Source: an uncultured Alphaproteobacteria bacterium (GTDB taxonomy: Bacteria; Pseudomonadota; Alphaproteobacteria; CAAHEQ01; UBA3637). Taken from it: DNA of 64,000 bases. The stretch spans positions 15,693 through 79,692 of the forward strand of contig CALXUB010000021.1 of assembly GCA_944391565.1 (NCBI GenBank). Direction: 5' to 3'. The notes under the pieces were generated by a model. The model was not told the DNA's origin, ran no database searches, and saw nothing but the letters and a program-made list of their open reading frames with translations. Made by a program: the position numbers and the translations under genes. Shown piece by piece: positions 2,335-49,510 of the stretch (positions within the stretch are counted from its first letter, which is position 1; each line of letters begins with the position of its first letter).

Positions 2335-3399
2335 ATGAAGATGCAAGCTTTAACACAAAAAAACTGGTGGGACCCCGATCTCTATCGGCAAAAGCTGCCG
2401 TTTCGAAAAGCGCGGTTAAAAACAATCCGCCGCATTCGTCGTTTTTTTGAAGAACAGGATTTTACCGAAGTCGACACGCCGGCTTTACAGGTTTCTCCGG
2501 GGCTGGAAGTCCATTTAAAGGCTTTTCAAACGGAGTTGGATGAACCTTTCGGACAAGGCGAACAAACGCGCTATCTGCACACATCGCCCGAATTTACCAT
2601 GAAAAAGCTGTTGACCGCGGGACTGGAACGCATTTTTCAAATCGCGCATGTCTACAGAAATGAAGAACGCGGCCGAACACATCATCCCGAATTTACCATG
2701 CTGGAGTGGTACCGGGCCGGCGCGACTTACAGCGCCATGATGGATGATACGGAAGCGTTGGTTAAAGCCTGTGCCGAAGCGCTCGGCGTCTCCAAACTTC
2801 AATTCAACGGACGAACAGCGGATCCTTTTCGCCCCTGGTGCCGATTGACGGTGCAAGATGCTTTTTTAAATTATACCGGCATTGACGTCTTGGCAACCAT
2901 TCCCGAAAAAGTATCCATGGAGCCGGATCCGTCTCTTCTGCGTCGAGAAGCGGAAAAAATCGGTATTTGGACGTCTCCCGCCGATCGATGGGAAGACATT
3001 TTCTTTCGCATTATGCTGGAAAAAATCGAACCTAAGTTGGGCGATGACATTCCCGTCATTTTATGTGAATATCCGACCTGTTTGGGAGCTTTGGCCCGCA
3101 AAAAGCCGGAAGATGAACGCGTTGTCGAACGTTTTGAGGCGTATATCTGCGGCGTTGAATTATGCAATGCATTTTCCGAGTTGACGGATCCTGTTGAACA
3201 AGAAGCTCGTTTTGTTTACGATATGTCTATCAAAGAAAAATTATACAAAGAGCGTTATCCGATTGATACGGATTTTTTGGCCGCTCTTCAACACGGTATG
3301 CCGGCAGCAGCCGGTAATGCCATTGGCGTTGATCGGCTTGCCATGTTGTTGACCGGAGCGGATCGAATCGAAGACGTCCTATGGGCGCCGGTTGTTTAA
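2335..3399 (+). CDS. epmA: EF-P lysine aminoacylase (LysRS-like)
   Basis: YLHTSPEFTMKKLL, HHPEFTMLEWYR and GVDRL motifs; divergent from efp; start at 2335 or 2341. Confidence 0.95.
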   Translation: MKMQALTQKNWWDPDLYRQKLPFRKARLKTIRRIRRFFEEQDFTEVDTPALQVSPGLEVHLKAFQTELDEPFGQGEQTRYLHTSPEFTMKKLLTAGLERIFQIAHVYRNEERGRTHHPEFTMLEWYRAGATYSAMMDDTEALVKACAEALGVSKLQFNGRTADPFRPWCRLTVQDAFLNYTGIDVLATIPEKVSMEPDPSLLRREAEKIGIWTSPADRWEDIFFRIMLEKIEPKLGDDIPVILCEYPTCLGALARKKPEDERVVERFEAYICGVELCNAFSELTDPVEQEARFVYDMSIKEKLYKERYPIDTDFLAALQHGMPAAAGNAIGVDRLAMLLTGADRIEDVLWAPVV

Positions 3400-8594: not shown

Positions 8595-9395
8595 TTATAA
8601 TTTTTCGGCAATTTTCAATGCATCAGAAGCCGCATCGGCATTCGGATAGCCGGACAAAATAGACGTTTGCGATCGAATGGCATCTCTGACATGCGCATCG
8701 CGGCGGATAATTCCGGCCAAATCCGGCGACAGCTTTAAAAATCCCTGACACGCTTTCAACAACGTCGCGTAAGTCCTTTCGCCTTCCCGCACATTATTCA
8801 CGGCATTCACCACAATACGAATATCCACATTCGGATTTTCGGAAGATATGATTTTAATAAAAGCGTAAGCATCCGTCAACGATGTCGGCTCATCCGTGCA
8901 AACCACCAACAATGTCCCGGCGTTTTGGGCAAACAACCGGACCGCTTTTTCAACACCGGCCCCCAAATCAATCACAACTTTGTCATACTGAGACGCCAAC
9001 AGTTGCAAATCATCAAAAATCAACTGCAAACGCGACAATGGAATATTCGCTAAGCTGCCCGACCCCGAACGACCGGCGACCACATCAAATCCCAAATCCG
9101 ATTTCATCACCGCTTGCGTCAACGGCACACGTCCCGTAATAACAGAACCTAAATCGTATTCCGCCACCAATCCTAATTGAATATCTACGTTTGCCAGTCC
9201 TAAATCACCGTCAAACAGCAATGTTTTTTCGCCGGCTTTAGCCAAAGCATGCGCCAATGTAATGGACAGCCATGTTTTACCCACGCCGCCTTTGCCGGAA
9301 GCAACGGCTATCATATTACGTCCTTTGACGGCGCCGGCCGGGCGCGGTGCCATCTGCAAGGTATCCGGTAAAGTCAAAATGCGTGAAATATTCAT
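8595..9395 (-). CDS. flhG: MinD/ParA-family ATPase FlhG (FleN)
   Basis: Deviant Walker A GKGGVGKT, DGDLGLANVD, EPTSLTDAYA; follows flhF with an ATGA overlap. Confidence 0.88.
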   Translation of the reverse strand: MNISRILTLPDTLQMAPRPAGAVKGRNMIAVASGKGGVGKTWLSITLAHALAKAGEKTLLFDGDLGLANVDIQLGLVAEYDLGSVITGRVPLTQAVMKSDLGFDVVAGRSGSGSLANIPLSRLQLIFDDLQLLASQYDKVVIDLGAGVEKAVRLFAQNAGTLLVVCTDEPTSLTDAYAFIKIISSENPNVDIRIVVNAVNNVREGERTYATLLKACQGFLKLSPDLAGIIRRDAHVRDAIRSQTSILSGYPNADAASDALKIAEKL

Positions 9396-10348
9396 GATAA
9401 CCCCTCTTCTTTCAATAAAATCAATTCCGCCAAAGCCTTGGGCGTCAACGGACACAAGCCTTCGGAAACATGCGGGCTGATTCCCACATCCGACAAACTT
9501 AACCCGTTGTTTTGGGCCGCAAATAACAAACTGCCGATGCGGCGCGATAAATCCAACCGCGTTGCCAAAATCCGTTTACATCCCAGCGTCAAAAAAGCCT
9601 CCGCCATTTCTGCCGTTTCAAAAGCATCCCCGCCGGCCGAAAGAACCAAAACAGGCTCCAACCCGTCAATATCGGCTTTCAATTCGGCCAAATAAGCCAT
9701 ATCCGTTTTTAAAAACGGATTGACCCCCGGGCTGTCAATCAAAACCAAATCACTTGTTTGACGCAGACTTTCGACGGCTGTTTTCAAAAAAGCCGGTTTA
9801 CGGATTTTCACTAAATCCAACTCTAAAATTTTGGTAAAAGCCTCCAACTGTTCAATCGCGCCGGCCCGTTTTATATCGGTTGTGACTACGCCGACTTTTT
9901 TACCGGCCATTTTAGCCTTGACCGCCATTTTGGCGACCGCAATCGTCTTGCCGCACCCCGACGGTCCCGTCAGCATAAACGCCCGTCTGGAGCTTGTCGC
10001 CGGCAAGGGCATAAAGTGAAAAGTCCGCTCCAACGCATGTGTCAACAATTCTTTAGCCTCCCGTCCCGGTGCCTGTTCGGCGCCGATCAGCAACCGATCC
10101 ATTAAAATCTCGGGTACTCTGTGAGCCGCCAAAGCCGCCCGAATCACACGCAGCACTTGTTCTTCCTTAGGCCCGAACAAAGCTTCTTCAATTTCCGCTT
10201 CCGAGACTTTTTCAGGCGCTCCGACCGTCACACGCACACCGTCCGAAACATGCTGGTTTGACAAAATCAACGCGTCCGGTCCGAAATCTCTTCGAATGGC
10301 TTCCATTGCTTCGGCAAGACAAGAGGCCGCGTAGGTTTTGATTTTCAT
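9392..10348 (-). CDS. flhF: SRP-family GTPase FlhF (short B-domain)
   Basis: N-terminal MKIKTY…AMEAIRRDFGPDALILS; GPSGCGKT, DIKRAGA, DSPG and TRLD GTPase motifs. Confidence 0.88.
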   Translation of the reverse strand: MKIKTYAASCLAEAMEAIRRDFGPDALILSNQHVSDGVRVTVGAPEKVSEAEIEEALFGPKEEQVLRVIRAALAAHRVPEILMDRLLIGAEQAPGREAKELLTHALERTFHFMPLPATSSRRAFMLTGPSGCGKTIAVAKMAVKAKMAGKKVGVVTTDIKRAGAIEQLEAFTKILELDLVKIRKPAFLKTAVESLRQTSDLVLIDSPGVNPFLKTDMAYLAELKADIDGLEPVLVLSAGGDAFETAEMAEAFLTLGCKRILATRLDLSRRIGSLLFAAQNNGLSLSDVGISPHVSEGLCPLTPKALAELILLKEEGLS

Positions 10349-10354
10349 CGCACG

Positions 10355-11158
10355 TTATTCCTCAAACAAGTGCAACTGCTGATCCGCCGGCAAAACGCTG
10401 TTCAATTCAATTTCCGTTCGTCTGGGATTTTCGGCGGCATCAATGGCCGCAAGCCCCACCAGACACAACTGAGCCAATTGTTGTTCCTGCTGAGCATCTC
10501 GCTCCAGCTTTGTTGCCAGCGGCAGAAAAACGACATACGCCAACAAAGCCCCATAAAAAGTCGTGATAATGGCGATCGACATGCTGGGACCGATGGTCGT
10601 CGGATCCGACAGGGTCGACAGCATTTGAACCAATCCGATCAACGTGCCGATCAACCCCATTGCCGGTGCGATTTCACCGGCTTTGTTCAATACGGCAACC
10701 GCATTCATTTTGGCAGCCAAATCACTGTGCATACGACGGGTCATAACCTCTTGACATTCTTTACCGCTCATCCCGTCGATTAAATAGGAAACCCCCAAGC
10801 TGAGAAACGGAATGCGCCGCACGTCTGCCGCATAACTTTTTTGAAGCGATAACACACCGCTTGCATGCGCAATTTCCGAACCGCGCATAATCCAGGCGGC
10901 CACACTTTCTAAACTTTGCTCCCGCCGAAACAGCGTTTTAAAAATCACAACAAAGCTTTGCACGATTTCCGGCAAAGAAAAACTGGCAACACAAGCAAAC
11001 AATGTGCCGCCCAAGACAATCAAAGCCGACGGCCCGTTTAAAAACGAAGCAAGCGATCCATTCAAAAAAATCGCAATGCCGATAAATAAAAAAGCTCCCG
11101 TCAGTCCGATTAAAACAGACGGATCAAAAAATCGAGAAACACTGTCTGTCTTGCGCAT
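10355..11158 (-). CDS. motA: Flagellar stator A subunit MotA/PomA
   Basis: Four TM segments; SALIVLGGT, APAMGLIGTLIGLVQML and TTFYGALLA motifs. Confidence 0.9.
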   Translation of the reverse strand: MRKTDSVSRFFDPSVLIGLTGAFLFIGIAIFLNGSLASFLNGPSALIVLGGTLFACVASFSLPEIVQSFVVIFKTLFRREQSLESVAAWIMRGSEIAHASGVLSLQKSYAADVRRIPFLSLGVSYLIDGMSGKECQEVMTRRMHSDLAAKMNAVAVLNKAGEIAPAMGLIGTLIGLVQMLSTLSDPTTIGPSMSIAIITTFYGALLAYVVFLPLATKLERDAQQEQQLAQLCLVGLAAIDAAENPRRTEIELNSVLPADQQLHLFEE

Positions 11159-39873: not shown

Positions 39874-40482
39874 CTAATTATTACGTTCCATTGAATTAAG
39901 CAATATTTTCATACGGTTCTGCTCTAAGAGATTTTGTTGCTCCATAAATTTATCAATCGCATTTTGAACATCTTGGACTGTCTGGCAAATACAAATGCTC
40001 TTTTTTGCAGCAATCCGATCTTTTTCTGACGGATTAAATAAAATATTCAGAAAAGTAATCCCTTTTTCGTCTGCATCAGGATATAGATCAGATAAACGAT
40101 CACCGATTAAAACGCATCTGGAAACATCTTTCGTACCGACTTTTTTTTCATAATCACCAAACATTCCTCTATCAGTTTTTTCCGAGTGCATCACAGAATC
40201 AAGATTCTGACCAAAAAATTCCAAAAGTTCAATGTATGTTTCAGTACCATTTGCCAATGAAATAATGGTATTTTTGAAACCATAGCGTTCTTTAACATTT
40301 TTTAGCATATCGAACATACTGTGATTGTAATACCTGTCAAAATACCTGTCAAATCCGACACCACTAGCTCGATAAGGCTCCTTGTCTGCCGCAGGCCTTG
40401 ATTTGACAATATCCAAATCTTGGGCTTTGTACATCCATAATGTCCCTTCTAAATCAATAAGTAAAACATTTTTATTTTCCAT
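39874..40482 (-). CDS. HAD-superfamily hydrolase-like protein
   Basis: Motif I variant LIDLEGT and motif IV IGDRLSD. Confidence 0.65.
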   Translation of the reverse strand: MENKNVLLIDLEGTLWMYKAQDLDIVKSRPAADKEPYRASGVGFDRYFDRYYNHSMFDMLKNVKERYGFKNTIISLANGTETYIELLEFFGQNLDSVMHSEKTDRGMFGDYEKKVGTKDVSRCVLIGDRLSDLYPDADEKGITFLNILFNPSEKDRIAAKKSICICQTVQDVQNAIDKFMEQQNLLEQNRMKILLNSMERNN

Positions 40483-40536: not shown

Positions 40537-41700
40537 TTATTCTTTCTGGTTTTCTTTTATATTTTGCGACAGCGCTTTTTTGTGTGTAGCCACTTTACAT
40601 GGCATTTCTTTGCCGTATTTTTCATGAATCTTTAAAAGCGCCAACCGTGTTTCGCCGTCTATATACCTTGCGTCCAGAATCATCATCTGAATGCTGTCCG
40701 ACTTGCAGCCGTTTTGAAGCAGAACTTTAAGCATTGCTGCATTGCCGTTTTCGCATGCCATTTTAATTGTTTCTTCTGGCTTAGAAATTTGAAGACCTTT
40801 TGAAAACGCCCAGCTCATTAACGAAGCCTTGTCAGATTCGACAATCGCTTCTGTCAACGGATATTTTTTTGTTTTTATATCCGCTCCATGGTCGACAAGA
40901 ACTTCCGCGACCTTTTTATCACCTTTTTTCAAGGTCTGCCACAACAGCCAGTCTTTTATATCATCGCCTCTTTCAAAACGTTTGACTTTCCGCACGGCTT
41001 TAAAATCATAGCCTTTTTCTATAGCTTTATTTAAAACGGCCAAAGATGGAGCCTCTATAAAATCAGCTTTTGCGCCTTTGTCGAGTAAGAACAATTTCAT
41101 CTTGTCACTGGCGATGGAAAATAAGGTAAACGTATTACCATCATAATCACCCCAATGATACCAATCTAAGTCAATCTCATATTTTGATTTATCCAAAATC
41201 AGCTGTAATAATTCAGGAGAATCTTTTTTGATGACACGTGCCATGACAGGCTTTTGACGCCAGGCATCACCCACGTTATACTGACAAGTAAAGTTCGGAT
41301 TAGCGCCATTTTCAAGCAAATAGGAAACGCTCTCAGGAGACCAAGTTTCACCCTCAAAACCAATCTCGTCACCAAGCAGATTCATTTCCAATTCCGTTTT
41401 TGTCCAGTCAATGCAATACGGTTCCTTTTCCAAAAAGTATTCAAAAATCTTTTTATGACCTCTATAGGCACGACGAACGGAGACGGCTGAAATTGGCGTG
41501 CCGGCTTCTACTAAAATTTGAGCGGCCTCTAAGTTGTCTTGGTCAATCGCTTCATACAAAGGACTTTCCTTTTCAAACTCCTTGCCACATCCGCATCGAC
41601 ACGTAAAATAATCCGGTTTAATGTGTTTAGGATTTTTCGCCAGCTTGCGAAGTTTGTCCATATCGTTATGTTTAATGGCTGAAATCACATTATAATTCAT
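40537..41700 (-). CDS. Ankyrin-repeat protein
   Basis: SPLYEAI…LVEAG, LLENGANPN, LLDKGAK, LVDHGADI and LLQNGC repeats. Confidence 0.85.
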   Translation of the reverse strand: MNYNVISAIKHNDMDKLRKLAKNPKHIKPDYFTCRCGCGKEFEKESPLYEAIDQDNLEAAQILVEAGTPISAVSVRRAYRGHKKIFEYFLEKEPYCIDWTKTELEMNLLGDEIGFEGETWSPESVSYLLENGANPNFTCQYNVGDAWRQKPVMARVIKKDSPELLQLILDKSKYEIDLDWYHWGDYDGNTFTLFSIASDKMKLFLLDKGAKADFIEAPSLAVLNKAIEKGYDFKAVRKVKRFERGDDIKDWLLWQTLKKGDKKVAEVLVDHGADIKTKKYPLTEAIVESDKASLMSWAFSKGLQISKPEETIKMACENGNAAMLKVLLQNGCKSDSIQMMILDARYIDGETRLALLKIHEKYGKEMPCKVATHKKALSQNIKENQKE

Positions 41701-41702
41701 TT

Positions 41703-42437
41703 TTATTCTCCTTTCTCGTTTTTGTTAATGTTTTGAACTTGGACATCTTTGTGCGATGCGATTTTACGAACGGCAAACAAAGTTTTAAAGGCTTCATTTG
41801 CACTCCGACCTGCTACCGCCAAATTTTTGTTTTTAAAGGCTTTAATCTCGGTCACGTCTTTTGCCTCAGCTCCAAAGTATTCCGGTAACTGATAAGCATT
41901 GGCCTCTTCGATACTTTCAAACTCCACTTCAACAGAGGCAAAATCAAAGCCCATTTGCTCGTCATAAATATCGACTTCCAAAACATGCGTGCCGTCGTTG
42001 ATTTTAAAGCGCTCTTTTTTCACAAATCCAACTGCTTGTTTTTTAAAGGCCATTGCTTGTTCCGCCGAAATTTCAAACTCTTCTTCAAAGCGCATTAAAT
42101 CACCTTTTCCCTTAATCGTCAGGACAAATTTTTCGTTCCCATAATTGCGATAACGAATTTCCATATCGTTCAAACCGTCAGCAGCGATATAACCCGCAAA
42201 ATTGTGAATGACTGTATCGACAATGATATAGTCCGCAACATTGCGAATGACTTCATCAGAAACTTGAATTTTCTGCCCAGCACAATAGATGGATTTATAT
42301 CCGATCGTGAGCTCTGCTTTTTTTGGGTCTAAATAGCCTTGCTCCAAAGCTATCACCTCATGCGCTTTTTGTGCCAATACCTTTCGGTCAATTTTGGATT
42401 TAGGCATCACCCATTTTTTTTCGATTTCTTTTCCCAT
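41703..42437 (-). CDS. CYTH-domain (triphosphate tunnel metalloenzyme) protein
   Basis: EIEKKW (ExExK), EQGYL, RYR…LTIKG, RFEEEFEI and EVEF motifs. Confidence 0.88.
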   Translation of the reverse strand: MGKEIEKKWVMPKSKIDRKVLAQKAHEVIALEQGYLDPKKAELTIGYKSIYCAGQKIQVSDEVIRNVADYIIVDTVIHNFAGYIAADGLNDMEIRYRNYGNEKFVLTIKGKGDLMRFEEEFEISAEQAMAFKKQAVGFVKKERFKINDGTHVLEVDIYDEQMGFDFASVEVEFESIEEANAYQLPEYFGAEAKDVTEIKAFKNKNLAVAGRSANEAFKTLFAVRKIASHKDVQVQNINKNEKGE

Positions 42438-42438
42438 T

Positions 42439-43185
42439 TTATTCCTCTCTTTCATGTTGTTGGTTAATGTTGATTGGATAGTCTTTATGGCAGGCGACAA
42501 AACGCACAGCAGCTTTTTGTTCTGCCTCACAAACTTTGCCTTCAATCACTAAATCGGCAAATTCTTTGTTCGGTATGATGTACTTTGAAGCGGCTTTTGA
42601 TACAATCTCAAATTGCTTTTTCATTTGAAGCGGATCTTGATTACGCGTGATGGCTCTTTCTTGATAGCGCTTCCATTGAACGGCTTTATCGATTGATAAG
42701 TAAATTTTCAAGTCAAATAAATCCCGAACTTCTGGATATAACGTACAAATGCTTTCAACAAACACTATTTTTGAGGGCCGACAGTGTATGGCTTTTGCTT
42801 TTGACGAACCATCCCGCATTTCGTAATAAGGAGTATCAATCGTTCGCCCAGACCTCAAGGCTTTTAAATCCGAGGATAACAAATCCATTTGAAAGTTTTG
42901 AGAACTTTCTGTTTCATATCCACTTTCCACCAGTTTTGTAAAAGAGCCAACCTCCGAAATTCGATCAGAAATGTCACAAAAGTAATTGTCCGCACTGATA
43001 ACAGACATCTGAGGAACTTTGTCCTTCAAAGCATTCAACAAGGTTGTTTTTCCCGATGCACTTTCTCCACATAAAGCGACTAAAATGACATCTTGTTGCT
43101 TCATCAGCTTGGCTAATTTTTGTTTAATGGCAGGTGTTGATTGCAAAACATTTGCATGTTGTAAAATTGCATCAATTAAATTCAT
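42439..43185 (-). CDS. Uridine kinase/phosphoribulokinase-family P-loop kinase
   Basis: GESASGKTT, DNYF, PYYE, DLFDLKIYL and YIIPNKEFAD motifs. Confidence 0.85.
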   Translation of the reverse strand: MNLIDAILQHANVLQSTPAIKQKLAKLMKQQDVILVALCGESASGKTTLLNALKDKVPQMSVISADNYFCDISDRISEVGSFTKLVESGYETESSQNFQMDLLSSDLKALRSGRTIDTPYYEMRDGSSKAKAIHCRPSKIVFVESICTLYPEVRDLFDLKIYLSIDKAVQWKRYQERAITRNQDPLQMKKQFEIVSKAASKYIIPNKEFADLVIEGKVCEAEQKAAVRFVACHKDYPININQQHEREE

Positions 43186-43197
43186 TTTTTAACTCCT

Positions 43198-43260
43198 TTA
43201 TAAAGCTGCTAAAACTAAAGCGATGGGTACTAAAATTACAAAATCAATTAAATCTCTCAT
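43198..43260 (-). CDS. 20-aa hydrophobic peptide MRDLIDFVILVPIALVLAAL
   Basis: Strong SD AAGGAGG; its stop overlaps the SD of the kinase gene. Confidence 0.5.
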   Translation of the reverse strand: MRDLIDFVILVPIALVLAAL

Positions 43261-43378
43261 TTTTGCCTCCTTTATTCTCGTACAAGTTCTCTTTTTTCAA
43301 TCAACTTCAAAAGTTCTTTTCTTTTTGATACTTGTTTTTTTCCTTTTAAACCGCCGATCAATTCGCTCAAGATGAAAA

Positions 43379-43501
43379 TTAGCTTTCCAGTTCTTTTAGT
43401 TTTAAACGCCTTTTTTCCTTTCTGCTTTCTTCTTCACTAAGGAATAATTCATAGACCCACTCTTCAAGTTCAAAGAAAACGCCTTTTCCCAAATGTTCCA
43501 T
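43379..43501 (-). CDS. 40-aa charged peptide (MEHLGKGVFFELEEW…)
   Basis: Strong SD AAGGAGGAG; first ORF after an AT-rich promoter region. Confidence 0.45.
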   Translation of the reverse strand: MEHLGKGVFFELEEWVYELFLSEEESRKEKRRLKLKELES

Positions 43502-43725: not shown

Positions 43726-44430
43726 TTACAAATTGTTCCAAATGAAATCGAATTGTTTCCGTGCTGTTTCTGCCGTTTGTTCGTGCGTTATAATCATAAT
43801 ACGAAAAGGCGTTTCAAAAAATAAATATGCCAACCGATCCTTATAAATAATGCTGGGCATGAGCGGCAGTCCTTTGACATTTGCCAAACGTTTTTCACCG
43901 CCAACGAAGGTAATCCCCGCATCTTGTTTAGGATAGCAAAGCGTCTTCACACGAATACCTTGATTTTTTGTAATTTTCTGTTGAAAAGCAGCAACATCTG
44001 ATTTACCAATTTGAAGCAGTTTGTTTTCGTCAATTCCGCAAAGCAGCAATTCTCCGCCTTCTTTATCCATAACATGAATGATGTTACGCAATAGCTGCAG
44101 CAAAGTACTTGCCCCTTCCAAAACTTTGACACGAAAGAAAGCATTTTCAATCCGCACGCCCGGACCATCAATAAACTGCACACCGCTTAGTTCGAATGTT
44201 TGCTGAATATCTGATATTGTATCCGTTCTGGCACTCGCGATGCCACGTTCAATATTATTGATTGCAGGCAAGGAATATCCTGATTTTTTGGCCAAATCCG
44301 CTTGTGACCAACCTAATAAAGCGCGTGCCGCTTTAATCTGCTCTGGGGCCAATGTTGGCAGAGAATTTAAATCTCGAACCAAAGTAATGTTTTTCTCTGA
44401 AATATATTCTTCTTTTTGTTTTTGAGCCAT
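43726..44430 (-). CDS. XRE-family HTH regulator with a C-terminal sensor-like domain
   Basis: QIKAARALLGWSQADLA…INNIERG; hairpin GCATCC…GGATGC downstream. Confidence 0.88.
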   Translation of the reverse strand: MAQKQKEEYISEKNITLVRDLNSLPTLAPEQIKAARALLGWSQADLAKKSGYSLPAINNIERGIASARTDTISDIQQTFELSGVQFIDGPGVRIENAFFRVKVLEGASTLLQLLRNIIHVMDKEGGELLLCGIDENKLLQIGKSDVAAFQQKITKNQGIRVKTLCYPKQDAGITFVGGEKRLANVKGLPLMPSIIYKDRLAYLFFETPFRIMIITHEQTAETARKQFDFIWNNL

Positions 44431-46443: not shown

Positions 46444-47577
46444 TTAATCTCGACATTTTCCCTTATTAAATATTTCTATTGGATGAGGTATTCGCTTCCC
46501 TGACAATCTCTTATTTGCAAATCGCATTGTCCAAGGGCTTCTATAATTATTCCATACTTCTGGCTCTAATGCTGTACTTTTAAATGCCTTCTCTATAATT
46601 TTTCTTGCTTTAAAAAAGTATTCAATATTATTAGCCTCTGGCGTTTTAATTGTTGCAGACTGCTTATTGTGAATTTGTAATAAATTTACAATAGGAAACA
46701 CGTTACAAACTTCACGAAATTCATTAAAATATTTTTCTACAGTGTTTAACGGCTCCAGTCCTAAAACATAAGAATATGTAACCTCAAACTCCATTTTCCT
46801 TGCCTTTAACATAAGACTTTTAATATATTCAATAGACAATTTACTTTTGCTTTCTCTTAATTTATTTCTGTTTTCAAAGGTTTCTATGGAAAAACAGATG
46901 CGCATCGGTTGACATCCTACAAGCTGTTGCAAATCTTCTTCTGTTGATATTTGCGATCCTAAGTATAACAACCGTCCTTTAAAATTAAACTCATTGTCTG
47001 CAACATGCTTAATATTTTTTAATGTTTCGATAACTTGATTACTATCTGTATAGCAGCCTGTAACAACAGATAACTCAATTAAATCACCTAAGTCTTTCAT
47101 ATCATATTTATCCAGAAATTTAACAAAAAAGTTTTTAAAGTCTTCTTTTGTTAATAGTTTCTTATTATCATGAGGTATCTGGTAAATAGCATAACAAAAA
47201 TTACATCCCCTGCAGGACGTTCGTTGATTAGGATTTATATTTAAAGAAGTACGCTCTCTTCGCCAATAATGAGAGTTACATATATCTTCCGTAGTTCCTT
47301 CCATAAGACCTAATTCAGTGTTATTTAAAAGTAATTTATTATTATTCAATTTGAAGGGGCTATTTTTGTGAACTGGCAGAGCAAAATAAAAATAGCTTTC
47401 ATTTTCATTTACAGTCAGAGGAAAAAGATTCGTATTGGTTACATGAAGCTGTCCCCGCATGCGATCATAGCCACAATCATAGTCTACGCCCGTTGTATTA
47501 AGAGCAATAAATACACTGTCCTCCATAGGAATTTCATATTTTTCAGACAACTTTTTGATCAAATCAATATCTAACAT
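46444..47577 (-). CDS. Radical SAM-like protein with an atypical CxxCxxC motif
   Basis: SCRGCNFC, VVTGC, FSIETF and YSYVLGLE radical-SAM-like barrel motifs. Confidence 0.75.
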   Translation of the reverse strand: MLDIDLIKKLSEKYEIPMEDSVFIALNTTGVDYDCGYDRMRGQLHVTNTNLFPLTVNENESYFYFALPVHKNSPFKLNNNKLLLNNTELGLMEGTTEDICNSHYWRRERTSLNINPNQRTSCRGCNFCYAIYQIPHDNKKLLTKEDFKNFFVKFLDKYDMKDLGDLIELSVVTGCYTDSNQVIETLKNIKHVADNEFNFKGRLLYLGSQISTEEDLQQLVGCQPMRICFSIETFENRNKLRESKSKLSIEYIKSLMLKARKMEFEVTYSYVLGLEPLNTVEKYFNEFREVCNVFPIVNLLQIHNKQSATIKTPEANNIEYFFKARKIIEKAFKSTALEPEVWNNYRSPWTMRFANKRLSGKRIPHPIEIFNKGKCRD

Positions 47578-48416
47578 TTTTCTTTCTCTTCTCTTACGAG
47601 TTGGTTTAAAAAATCCACTTTCTTTTGAGAAACTAAAAGGGTAGATAAAACAGGAACAGTAATCACTTTATGCTTTGCAATAACTTTTGATACTTCATCT
47701 AAAAAACCTTCTCGTTTATCATCATCGCCTATATCTATAATTTTGGGAAAAGTCTTAAGCAACTGAGGATATGTTTTTTCATCATAGTTATAATGCGTCA
47801 GATACCTGTTCAAAAAGATCAAATTGAAATAAGGATTATGAGCGATTTGTGCAATTCGACCATTTAATTTATTTAAAACCCCTTCATTTACCTCCTTTGT
47901 TGTTTTAGGCGCATAAATATCGGGCAACCACTTTTGATATAGGTCCTCAATTTCTTTAGTTGTCGTATTTTCAGCCTTTAAAAAACTATTCCAAACTGTT
48001 ATCAACTTGCCATCCTCTGCAAGTAAGTTTAATAATTTTGGATAGACATCTTCATTTTTAAGCCAATGAAGTGCTGTAAAAGTAGCTATAGCTTCAAATT
48101 TTTCTGTTGTGGAAAAATCTTCAAATGTAGAATTTATAACCTGTATTTTGTTGTTATTGGCAACTGAAGCTCGTGCGATTTTGCATAAACTTTCCCCAGG
48201 CTCAACTGCAACGATACGACAATTAAAATTGCCTAATTTTTTTGTAGAAATCCCACTTCCTGCCCCAATCTCCAATATTCTGTTTGTATCTGTTATGTCG
48301 CATACCTTATAAATATCATCAAACAACTCATCTGGATAAGATGGTCTAACCTCATCGTAATTATTTGCATAAACATCAAAGGATGCATTAAAGAGTGTTT
48401 TTCCTCGAAAATCCAT
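47571..48416 (-). CDS. Class I SAM-dependent methyltransferase
   Basis: YDEVRPSYP, LEIGAGSG, VEP and TALHW motifs. Confidence 0.9.
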   Translation of the reverse strand: MDFRGKTLFNASFDVYANNYDEVRPSYPDELFDDIYKVCDITDTNRILEIGAGSGISTKKLGNFNCRIVAVEPGESLCKIARASVANNNKIQVINSTFEDFSTTEKFEAIATFTALHWLKNEDVYPKLLNLLAEDGKLITVWNSFLKAENTTTKEIEDLYQKWLPDIYAPKTTKEVNEGVLNKLNGRIAQIAHNPYFNLIFLNRYLTHYNYDEKTYPQLLKTFPKIIDIGDDDKREGFLDEVSKVIAKHKVITVPVLSTLLVSQKKVDFLNQLVREEKEKC

Positions 48417-48417
48417 T

Positions 48418-48972
48418 TTAATCGCCTCTCACAAAATTTTGAAATCTATTCTTAATAAAAGCCAAATCTAACGGTCTAGAAAAGTCCCGCCGCCCACCTA
48501 GTTTAATTGGAACGCGGATAAATCCCAACTTGCCGGTTGTGTTTTTAATCGCATAGATAAACTCATTCACAGTTTTAACATCTACCACTTTTCCATACCC
48601 AACTTCTGTTGCAATTTTACACAAATCAATATCTTTCGAAAAAGATTTTTCTTCACTACAAGAAGCATATGATCCATTATCTAAAATAATATGAAGCAAA
48701 TTATGGGGTTTTTGATTCCCCAAAGTAGCCATACTTCCTAAATTCATTAACAAAGCTGAATCTCCATCTATTACAATGACTCTTTTCTTCGTATTTAATG
48801 CGATGCCAAGCCCAATAGATGAAGCGGCTCCCATTGATCCTGTCATATAAAAGTTGCCTGGCCTATCATACTTTTCAAAAATTTCTCTTGAAATAAGCCC
48901 CGTTGTTGACACGATCAAATCGTCATCGTTAATATTATGAATTATTGTTTGTATAGCAACTTCTCTATTCAT
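48418..48972 (-). CDS. Sulfopyruvate/phosphonopyruvate decarboxylase beta-type subunit (ComE-like, ThDP-binding)
   Basis: STTGLISRE, FYMTGSMG and GDSALLMNLG…DNG motifs. Confidence 0.88.
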   Translation of the reverse strand: MNREVAIQTIIHNINDDDLIVSTTGLISREIFEKYDRPGNFYMTGSMGAASSIGLGIALNTKKRVIVIDGDSALLMNLGSMATLGNQKPHNLLHIILDNGSYASCSEEKSFSKDIDLCKIATEVGYGKVVDVKTVNEFIYAIKNTTGKLGFIRVPIKLGGRRDFSRPLDLAFIKNRFQNFVRGD

Positions 48973-49510
48973 GCTGCCACCCGCGTTTTAATAAAGCAAC
49001 AAATGGTAAATTAGTCTTTGCTATACGTTTAAAACCATTATCAACGAATTTCTCCATGCTTTCACCGTGGTAAACAGCATAATCAAGACCAAAAGATTGA
49101 ATTAATTTTTCTGTTGCAGATCCTGTTATAAAATGTTGAGGAGCGTTTTCTCCTTCACACCCACGATATGAAACTACCATATATACAGGTATTTCATAAG
49201 GGATTAAAAGGGATGCGATGTTATTACTTGCCGCAAATAGCCCTGAATTTTGCATATATAGCATCGTTTTTTGATTAGCTAATACTGCGCCCGCAGCTAT
49301 ACCAATAGACTCTGCCTCATTTGTAGCTGGAATATGTCGTATTTTGGGATCATTAGCGATGTTATTAATAATGTGCCTTATAACTCCGCATGGCACCCCC
49401 GTGGCGACTTTTATGCCATTTTGCTTTATTGCATTGTGGAATGCAATTGTTTTAGGAGTGTTTATAAAATCTAAATTATTAAAATTTTTCATGGTTATTA
49501 TTTTTAACAT
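48965..49510 (-). CDS. Sulfopyruvate/phosphonopyruvate decarboxylase alpha-type subunit (ComD-like)
   Basis: GVPCG, NEAESIGIAAG, MQNSGL and YRG…PQH motifs. Confidence 0.88.
   Translation of the reverse strand: MLKIITMKNFNNLDFINTPKTIAFHNAIKQNGIKVATGVPCGVIRHIINNIANDPKIRHIPATNEAESIGIAAGAVLANQKTMLYMQNSGLFAASNNIASLLIPYEIPVYMVVSYRGCEGENAPQHFITGSATEKLIQSFGLDYAVYHGESMEKFVDNGFKRIAKTNLPFVALLKRGWQHE

Follow-up and report, generated by a model that had tools for sequence, protein, structure and literature searches.

A lineage-specific C-terminal tag on unrelated proteins of uncultured small-genome Alphaproteobacteria, a candidate type IV secretion signal

Why should three unrelated proteins, encoded side by side, end in the same short peptide? 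The question is raised by an island of low GC content in the stretch of DNA analyzed here, a window of 64,000 nucleotides (G000:C21:15693-79692) from the genome of an uncultured alphaproteobacterium (G000; 1.27 Mb in 37 contigs, 94% complete). Between about 38 and 53 kb of the window, GC content is 0.30-0.39, down from about 0.47, and on the minus strand a gene of the PRK/uridine-kinase family is followed by a CYTH (triphosphate-tunnel) gene, an ankyrin-repeat gene, and a gene of 202 amino acids (Table 1). The kinase, CYTH, and ankyrin proteins share a C-terminal tail of about 22 residues with the form [RK]-x-[VI]-A-x-H-K followed by 14 to 15 polar residues. We propose that this tail is a lineage-specific recognition tag, for which a type IV secretion signal would be the most likely identity, an assignment that we make tentatively.

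The original prediction, made from the sequence of the window, held that three unrelated neighboring proteins share a C-terminal A-x-H-K...N-I tag. Its interval, 40537-42510, takes in the ankyrin and CYTH genes together with the kinase tail, and the translated ends agree with those that it quoted. The pattern A.HK.{3,9}NI has three matches among the 4340 open reading frames (ORFs, taken as the longest open frames) of G000, and all three are these tails. When the last 28 amino acids are compared by BLOSUM62 local scoring, CYTH and ankyrin score 50, CYTH and kinase 46, and kinase and ankyrin only 20, where 1183 other tails give a background of about 15 +/- 4; of the 803 pairs of adjacent genes on one strand, the only ones to score higher have tails that resemble those of tandem paralogues. 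In AlphaFold models of the kinase and CYTH proteins, both tails lie outside the folded domains (kinase residues 220-248 and CYTH residues 224-244), with a predicted local distance difference test score (pLDDT) below 50. Mean pLDDT is 79.5 for CYTH and 83.4 for the kinase, with shallow alignments of 8 and 14 rows. A complex prediction that paired the body of the ankyrin protein (residues 1-363) with the tail of CYTH (residues 200-244) gave no answer (score 0.00) and is not used as evidence. As a separate feature of the CYTH protein, a 13-residue insertion at about residues 72-84 is absent from all six close orthologues, and the model falls below a pLDDT of 50 at residues 73-88.

A profile search of protein ends in the genome and its relatives had been suggested as the way to check the tag, and it supports the tag. 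The sample of the order comprised 80 genomes from 16 genera, and the first profile (A3) was built from six tails of genus g1 only. Besides G000 and its sister species (G002), this profile gave eight matches outside g1 at an E-value of 0.1 or below, five of which form the extreme C termini of real ORFs of 89 to 362 amino acids; the other three are weaker and fall in junk frames. Matches to A3 include an orphan protein of 362 amino acids in G012 (ending ..KPRKVSHHKKVIDNETQNLFERENNKIR), a family of 89-amino-acid proteins in G091, G062, and G085 (ending ..APSKVASHKRSQKTPANQNQR), and an ankyrin protein of 310 amino acids in G070 (ending ..LKTIVTHKQTFIQQQNNQNQRGG). Neighboring genes that were not picked by the profile share the tag as well: in G091, two adjacent unrelated genes end ..PSKVASHKRSQKTPANQNQR and ..PQKVSSHKRKVKTSFSDRQRG, the latter being a 219-amino-acid gene beside the 89-amino-acid gene, with an orthologue also found in G085. 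Five adjacent tagged genes occur in G034, two of them encoding ankyrin proteins, and the members of an ankyrin array in G072 end ..KKISTHQ.., ..KKIASHQ.., ..KKVASHQ.., and ..PQKIASAK... Refined profiles (A6 and A7) led to carriers in genera g3 and g8 and to more in g2 and g10. Twenty further matches of A7 were examined: 11 are in frames of at least 150 amino acids, 10 of these 11 end no more than 16 residues from the stop, and the nine in short frames look noncoding. By these tail profiles, the tag is present in 7 of the 16 genera.

As an out-group control, A7 was run on 298 alphaproteobacterial genomes from outside the family. It gave only eight weak matches at an E-value of 0.05 or below, with a maximum of 17.7 bits, and in these 298 genomes no frame of at least 150 amino acids has a match 5 residues or fewer from its stop; two matches are in such frames, 30 and 120 residues away. 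It follows from this control that the profile is not intrinsically drawn to C termini and that the signal is lineage specific.

Taken with the three proteins of the window, the 19 carriers from other genera make a list of 22, whose bodies, once the tails are removed, fall into 12 homology groups. Ankyrin repeats are present in nine of the 22, and 11 have no Pfam family (8/19 and 11/19, respectively, among the carriers from other genera). Two orphan carriers, in G102 and G009, have a hydrophobic stretch just before the tag and are small membrane proteins. Judged by eye, the printed N termini of the carriers show no obvious Sec signal peptide. Many carriers are encoded by adjacent genes, and 1 to about 10 were detected per genome. 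The consensus of 16 aligned tails reads P-R-K-I-A-x-H-K, eight variable positions, and then Q-N-Q-R; more loosely, the core is P-[RQK]-K-[IV]-[AS]-[ST]-H-[KQ], followed by 12 to 20 polar, Q/N-rich residues up to the free C terminus. That spacing after the His position holds for 22 of 22 carriers and is mostly 13 to 16 residues, the His position itself being occupied by Q in three carriers and by A in one. The tag lies 0 to 16 residues from the stop. The tails are thus a C-terminal motif, conserved at the protein level and predicted to be disordered, that recurs on unrelated proteins.

A second shared tail, ..SQALAKRREGR, was seen on two adjacent proteins of unlike size (98-100 and 342-346 amino acids) at L208 in G091 (9117-10475), L214 in G085 (8689-10044), and L213 in G062 (2964-3266). 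These genes adjoin genes with the H-K tag, and more than one tail type may circulate in this family.

The tail is also kept within families of relatives. Relatives of the kinase at 43-84% identity carry tag-like tails, and those at 43-63% identity have similar end peptides; kinase relatives in other assemblies end ..VRKIAHQNTQKNLDKEKERI and ..IRKISHQILQNGLDKEKERI. The C-terminal extension is kept in all CYTH orthologues (39-84% identity) and includes a His in all relatives at 39-48% identity. The divergent kinase paralogue had been described as lacking a terminal copy, and this is borne out: it has an internal degenerate copy (...VLVKDVISCLSGHQVQAETLTQK...) followed by about 30 more residues. 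A metagenome scan with the kinase alignment returned other kinase subfamilies and one relative of the island (L087), and an hmmsearch of the 23 closest loci (L086-L108) of the 80 kept found no CYTH neighbor and no tail.

Could the shared element reside in the nucleic acid rather than in the protein? The Rickettsia palindromic element is a multicopy palindromic DNA repeat with copies in varied contexts, and such an element might lie in frame by accident, as might a site of recombination or an RNA structure controlling the coupling of neighboring genes, as three copies at gene junctions in a low-GC island could suggest. A nucleotide profile (nhmmer) of six junctions, however, recovered only the three junctions in G000 and no other DNA copy, and the junction RNA folds no better than shuffled sequence (z of -0.8 to +2.0). 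The original prediction had pointed to different synonymous codons for the shared residues, and these are indeed found in all three tails; by manual count, the kinase and CYTH tails differ at 6 first, 6 second, and 12 third codon positions. Among the carriers, even the codon families of conserved residues vary, with R encoded by CGT or AGA, S by TCN or AGT, and the terminal R by AGG, AGA, CGG, or CGC, and conservation is therefore at the protein level. An element acting as nucleic acid is highly improbable on these grounds and largely refuted; a mobile repeat in particular does not fit with three copies in G000 and folds no better than those of shuffled sequence.

A narrower version of the same concern is that the last few residues merely reflect the Shine-Dalgarno sequence of the next gene. 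Within the window this suggestion of the original prediction fits (AAAGGAGAATAA): the stop codons lie within AAAGGAG-type ribosome-binding sites, 1 to 2 nucleotides (nt) before the next start, the CYTH start codon being 1 nt past the kinase stop and the ankyrin start 2 nt past the CYTH stop. As a general cause, however, it fails. Carriers from other genera encode the polar Q-R-G end by CAA-AGG, CAA-CGC-GGA, or CAA-CGG-GGA, and the stop of the G012 carrier is followed by an inverted repeat that by eye resembles a terminator, with no coupled gene. As the codons vary and this stop lacks a coupled gene, the polar end must be more than a ribosome-binding site.

It could still be argued that the tail is a historical by-product, a 3'-terminal stub copied from kinase to CYTH to ankyrin with no function as a peptide, its frame staying open mainly because the stub carries the translation-initiation region of the next cistron. 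The placement of the stop codons in the window would suit such a history, as would the stepwise tail scores given above, the restriction of tailed genes in G000 to adjacent ones, and the 65-70% DNA identity of the tails with their ratio of nonsynonymous to synonymous change (omega) of 0.68. The ankyrin gene, moreover, is genus specific and lies in a recently exchanged block (Table 1); in a collection of 5.8 billion proteins, its product has two relatives at 91% identity or more and one generic ankyrin protein at 23%. Synonymous divergence (dS) from the sister species is 0.08 for the ankyrin gene, 0.52 for CYTH, and 1.03 for the kinase, while omega for the ankyrin gene is about 0.6. These values point to recent lateral exchange or acquisition of a tagged cassette, and the ankyrin gene seems to have been added recently, by lateral exchange, with the same tag in place. 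Against a functionless stub stand the recurrence of the motif in other genera, on unrelated proteins whose tails use different codon families and are not always followed by a coupled gene; the fixed distance of His from the C terminus; the persistence of the tail among relatives of the kinase and of CYTH as distant as about 40-45% identity; and the empty out-group control. Decay or truncation would have been expected of a neutral stub. Because of the carriers in other genera, we have downgraded the reading of the tail as an operon-local stub with a ribosome-binding site, and we regard it as improbable. Copying may nevertheless describe how the tag travels: tail similarity is stepwise and tagged genes cluster elsewhere, which suggests that it could spread by local copying of 3' ends, after which selection would keep the core.

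If the peptide itself is what matters, something probably reads it, and the sequence data make such a receptor quite likely. In the mechanism proposed here, one common receptor would read the tag on unrelated cytoplasmic proteins, each presenting it on an unstructured extension beyond its folded domain. That this receptor would be a type IV secretion system (T4SS) is plausible, at a distinctly lower level of confidence; all three tagged proteins of the window would then be exported together as effectors. The coupling protein VirD4 (PF02534) is encoded in 80 of the 80 genomes of the order, mostly by two genes, and G000 has VirB4 and two VirD4 genes, on contigs C19 and C15, so a T4SS with a coupling protein is at hand. 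The tails are extreme C-terminal (22 of 22 carriers) and predicted to be unstructured (pLDDT below 50 for the kinase and CYTH tails), as expected of a T4SS signal. No type VI secretion sheath protein and no FHIPEP were found in G000, which has one secretin ORF. Secretion is our best guess because VirD4 occurs throughout the 80 genomes and G000 yielded no encapsulin or microcompartment shell.

How does the tag compare with signals that are already known? The VirB/VirD4 signal of Agrobacterium is Arg rich (R-x7-R-x-R-x-R), Dot/Icm effectors carry a Glu-rich E-block, and further T4SS cases include the XVIPCD of Xanthomonas and the VirD4-bound effectors of Anaplasma. Like the C-terminal translocation signals of T4SS substrates (PMC2824752 and PMC3225360), the tag is noncleaved, C terminal, and unstructured, and it is found on ankyrin and orphan proteins without Sec signals in genomes to which the T4SS and VirD4 are core. 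It differs in having a core that is defined in sequence (K-I/V-A-S-H-K) and keeps a nearly constant distance from the C terminus, in being neither Arg rich nor Glu rich nor a folded domain of about 120 amino acids, and in the few carriers detected per genome. Encapsulation peptides of bacterial microcompartments (BMCs) are short conserved terminal peptides that target cargo. The tag resembles these and the cargo-loading peptides of encapsulins (PMC8346489) in being a short conserved terminal peptide common to unrelated enzymes encoded side by side. Unlike in those systems, no shell gene was found in G000 (PF04454 and PF00936 gave 0 matches in this 94% complete genome), and many carriers are ankyrin proteins rather than typical cargo enzymes; we therefore rejected a cargo peptide. 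Type I secretion signals are compositional, with no fixed motif. Ankyrin and tandem-repeat proteins of Orientia and Ehrlichia, which are likewise alphaproteobacterial, are exported by type I secretion through a C-terminal signal (PMC4315096 and PMC3417381). In G000, however, no PrtD or HlyD equivalog reaches its cut-off (TIGR01842, best 215.6 bits against 510; TIGR01843, best 57.4 bits against 209), although a divergent system is possible, and with neither exporter nor membrane-fusion protein recognized, type I secretion is not supported in G000.

A number of observations weigh against secretion by a T4SS, and against the reach of the tag more generally. The Arg-rich or Glu-rich consensus of known T4SS signals is absent from the tails, whose net charge varies among carriers. 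No tagged genes were seen to adjoin T4SS genes, and the region around VirD4 in G098 had none. The few carriers detected per genome, 3 in G000, argue against a general secretion signal, since more proteins would be expected to bear one unless most copies are too degenerate for the profiles. Regular-expression, pairwise, and hidden Markov model scans of G000 found no further tail beyond control scores among 2591 ORFs of at least 80 amino acids, and none of the 14 other ankyrin ORFs rose above controls. The tails of ankyrin ORFs on contigs C12 (..ITSHKG..) and C30 (..VGCHKL..) and of an ORF on C5 (..VRPVARHTH..) reach at most 9.4 bits, where controls reach up to 9.8-13, and stay within noise. When a profile built from other genera only is run on the 2591 tails, the window's ankyrin (17.5 bits, E-value 5e-4) and CYTH (17.1 bits, E-value 7e-4) proteins rank first, above internal and reversed controls at 9.0-9.8 bits; the kinase tail, the weakest, scores 9.3 bits, inside the noise, and the check is partly circular because the tails from other genera were first found through the g1 profile. 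The idea that the tag marks a set of effectors therefore stands in part: it is common to unrelated effector-like proteins in 7 of 16 genera of the order, but in G000 it is confined to three adjacent proteins. The E-values of the first search were marginal per genome (4e-4 to 0.04, over 80 genomes), the later profiles were iterative and carry a risk of drift, and apparent cross-validation among them is likewise partly circular. The clustering of tagged genes also fits local duplication of 3' ends. Between G000 and the sister species, tails evolve faster than bodies (pooled omega 0.68 against 0.20), with only H-K invariant in them. Finally, the g1 tail profile had 3 matches among 1.84 billion proteins, namely the families of the window's CYTH and ankyrin proteins and an artifact from a tandem repeat, in a search so insensitive that even the kinase family was missed.

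A rival reading is a docking or regulatory peptide that has no part in export. Such a peptide would bind a bacterial scaffold, chaperone, or protease shared by the carriers, or would act as a linear motif in a host cell (a basic patch resembling a nuclear localization signal), and would coordinate the assembly, turnover, or localization of the tagged proteins. The structural facts, a disordered and conserved C-terminal peptide on unrelated proteins, are the same for docking and for secretion, and the small number of carriers per genome suits a specialized partner better than a general export signal. Basic runs resembling K-R-K-V-K occur in some tails. In plants, a uridine-kinase domain is fused to a CYTH domain in TTM1 and TTM2 (PMC9582125), which makes a physical complex of the two enzymes plausible. 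The window has these two enzyme families in matching order, kinase and then CYTH, but as two translationally coupled genes whose products each bear a tag. The CYTH protein of the window also keeps the ExExK motif (E-I-E-K-K, in the N terminus M-G-K-E-I-E-K-K), for which AtTTM1/2 have TYILK, according to PMC9582125. On the other side, the loci that were read show no candidate partner gene accompanying the tagged clusters, and no pathway obviously unites the carriers, among which are membrane proteins and many ankyrin paralogues. A PDZ-type tag is also excluded by the lack of conservation in the last four residues. We consider docking rather unlikely, and a secretion signal is retained as the preferred reading. 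A different fusion involving CYTH was seen in other genera at L082-L085 (G020, G091, G019, and G096), where a P-loop NTPase-CYTH protein of about 372-409 amino acids, with no tag, adjoins a ribosomal-protein-like gene.

Table 1. Positions of genes, tails, and the exchanged block in the window
Feature	Positions	Strand	Basis or remark
Kinase gene, 248 aa, PRK/uridine-kinase family	42439..43185	-	Pfam PF00485, E 4e-23, 82.6 bits (gathering 22)
Kinase C-terminal tag, last 24 aa, AAVRFVACHKDYPININQQHEREE	42442..42513	-	His 15 residues from the end
CYTH / triphosphate-tunnel gene, 244 aa	41703..42437	-	Pfam PF01928, E 6e-7, 29.9 bits (gathering 23.2)
CYTH C-terminal tag, last 24 aa, FAVRKIASHKDVQVQNINKNEKGE	41706..41777	-	translated sequence
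Ankyrin-repeat gene, 387 aa	40537..41700	-	Pfam Ank_2 and related families
Ankyrin C-terminal tag, last 24 aa, KEMPCKVATHKKALSQNIKENQKE	40540..40611	-	end also quoted as MPCKVATHKKALSQNIKENQKE
Exchanged block, ankyrin gene and last ~200 nt of CYTH	40550..41900		92-97% identity to sister species (L001/G002), flanks 75-85%
Downstream 202-aa gene, no tag	39874..40482	-	Pfam Hydrolase, E 0.035 (below cut-off), weak HAD-hydrolase resemblance
XRE-family helix-turn-helix regulator, between the two kinase genes	43726..44430	-	library scan and recurrence in relatives
Divergent kinase paralogue, 283 aa	44540..45391	+	internal degenerate motif copy and further C-terminal extension

The remaining features of the locus can be placed around the operon. 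The kinase and CYTH proteins both pass the Pfam gathering scores of their families; as the kinase scores under the NCBIfam equivalog cut-offs (92.6 bits against 220 for udk), it is assigned to a divergent PRK/uridine-kinase subfamily. The trio of paralogue, regulator, and kinase recurs in L001 and in the metagenome locus L087. Downstream, a 54-nt spacer containing TGTGATATAAT precedes the 202-amino-acid gene, whose HAD-like counterpart in the sister species (L001, 6256-6660) has lost its ATG (AAG there), is truncated to 134 amino acids, and appears to be decaying. Just 5' of the kinase start, a 20-codon ORF (43198-43260, minus strand) with its own AGGAGG site would encode a hydrophobic peptide, MRDLIDFVILVPIALVLAAL, possibly a small membrane peptide or a leader peptide. 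At 43272-43501 on the same strand, an ORF of 76 amino acids that is intact in L001 (3297-3527) and ends ..KRELVRE, with no tag, is split here into pieces of 40 and 32 amino acids by an apparent 1-nt deletion; the gene may be frameshifted or decaying, or the assembly may be wrong at this point. Elsewhere in the low-GC island, a radical-SAM gene (Pfam E-value 1.6e-4, below cut-off) and ORFs of 281, 184, and 181 amino acids (46444-49510, minus strand) may form a small biosynthetic cluster, and genes for tRNA-Gln and tRNA-Arg lie at 52.7-53.1 kb. A candidate promoter box, TTGACATAA, has 32 matches with at most one mismatch, where 23 +/- 5 are expected, and none lies upstream of the operon. A defense system was considered and set aside, PADLOC having yielded only weak P-loop or helix-turn-helix matches and one ankyrin-type match.

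A thin literature check found no published description of the tag, which is weak evidence for its absence from print. If it is instead a label for docking or turnover, the tag would offer a clean natural case of one peptide moved between unrelated genes. It is also conceivable, with rather more doubt than attaches to a T4SS signal as such, that a sequence-defined address (K-I/V-A-S-H-K and about 14 polar residues) serves as the substrate signal of the core T4SS of this family of uncultured small-genome Alphaproteobacteria. Type IV secretion signals are usually diffuse, and effector prediction in uncultured symbionts and predators is guesswork as a result. An alignable T4SS tag, short and set at a fixed distance from the C terminus, would give a handle in sequence on the effectors of a whole lineage that is known only from metagenomes, and effector sets could then be read straight from sequence. 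It would also reveal an unusual effector pair, in which a Udk-like kinase and a triphosphate-tunnel (CYTH) enzyme would be injected with an ankyrin protein and would alter the nucleotide or polyphosphate pools of the host.

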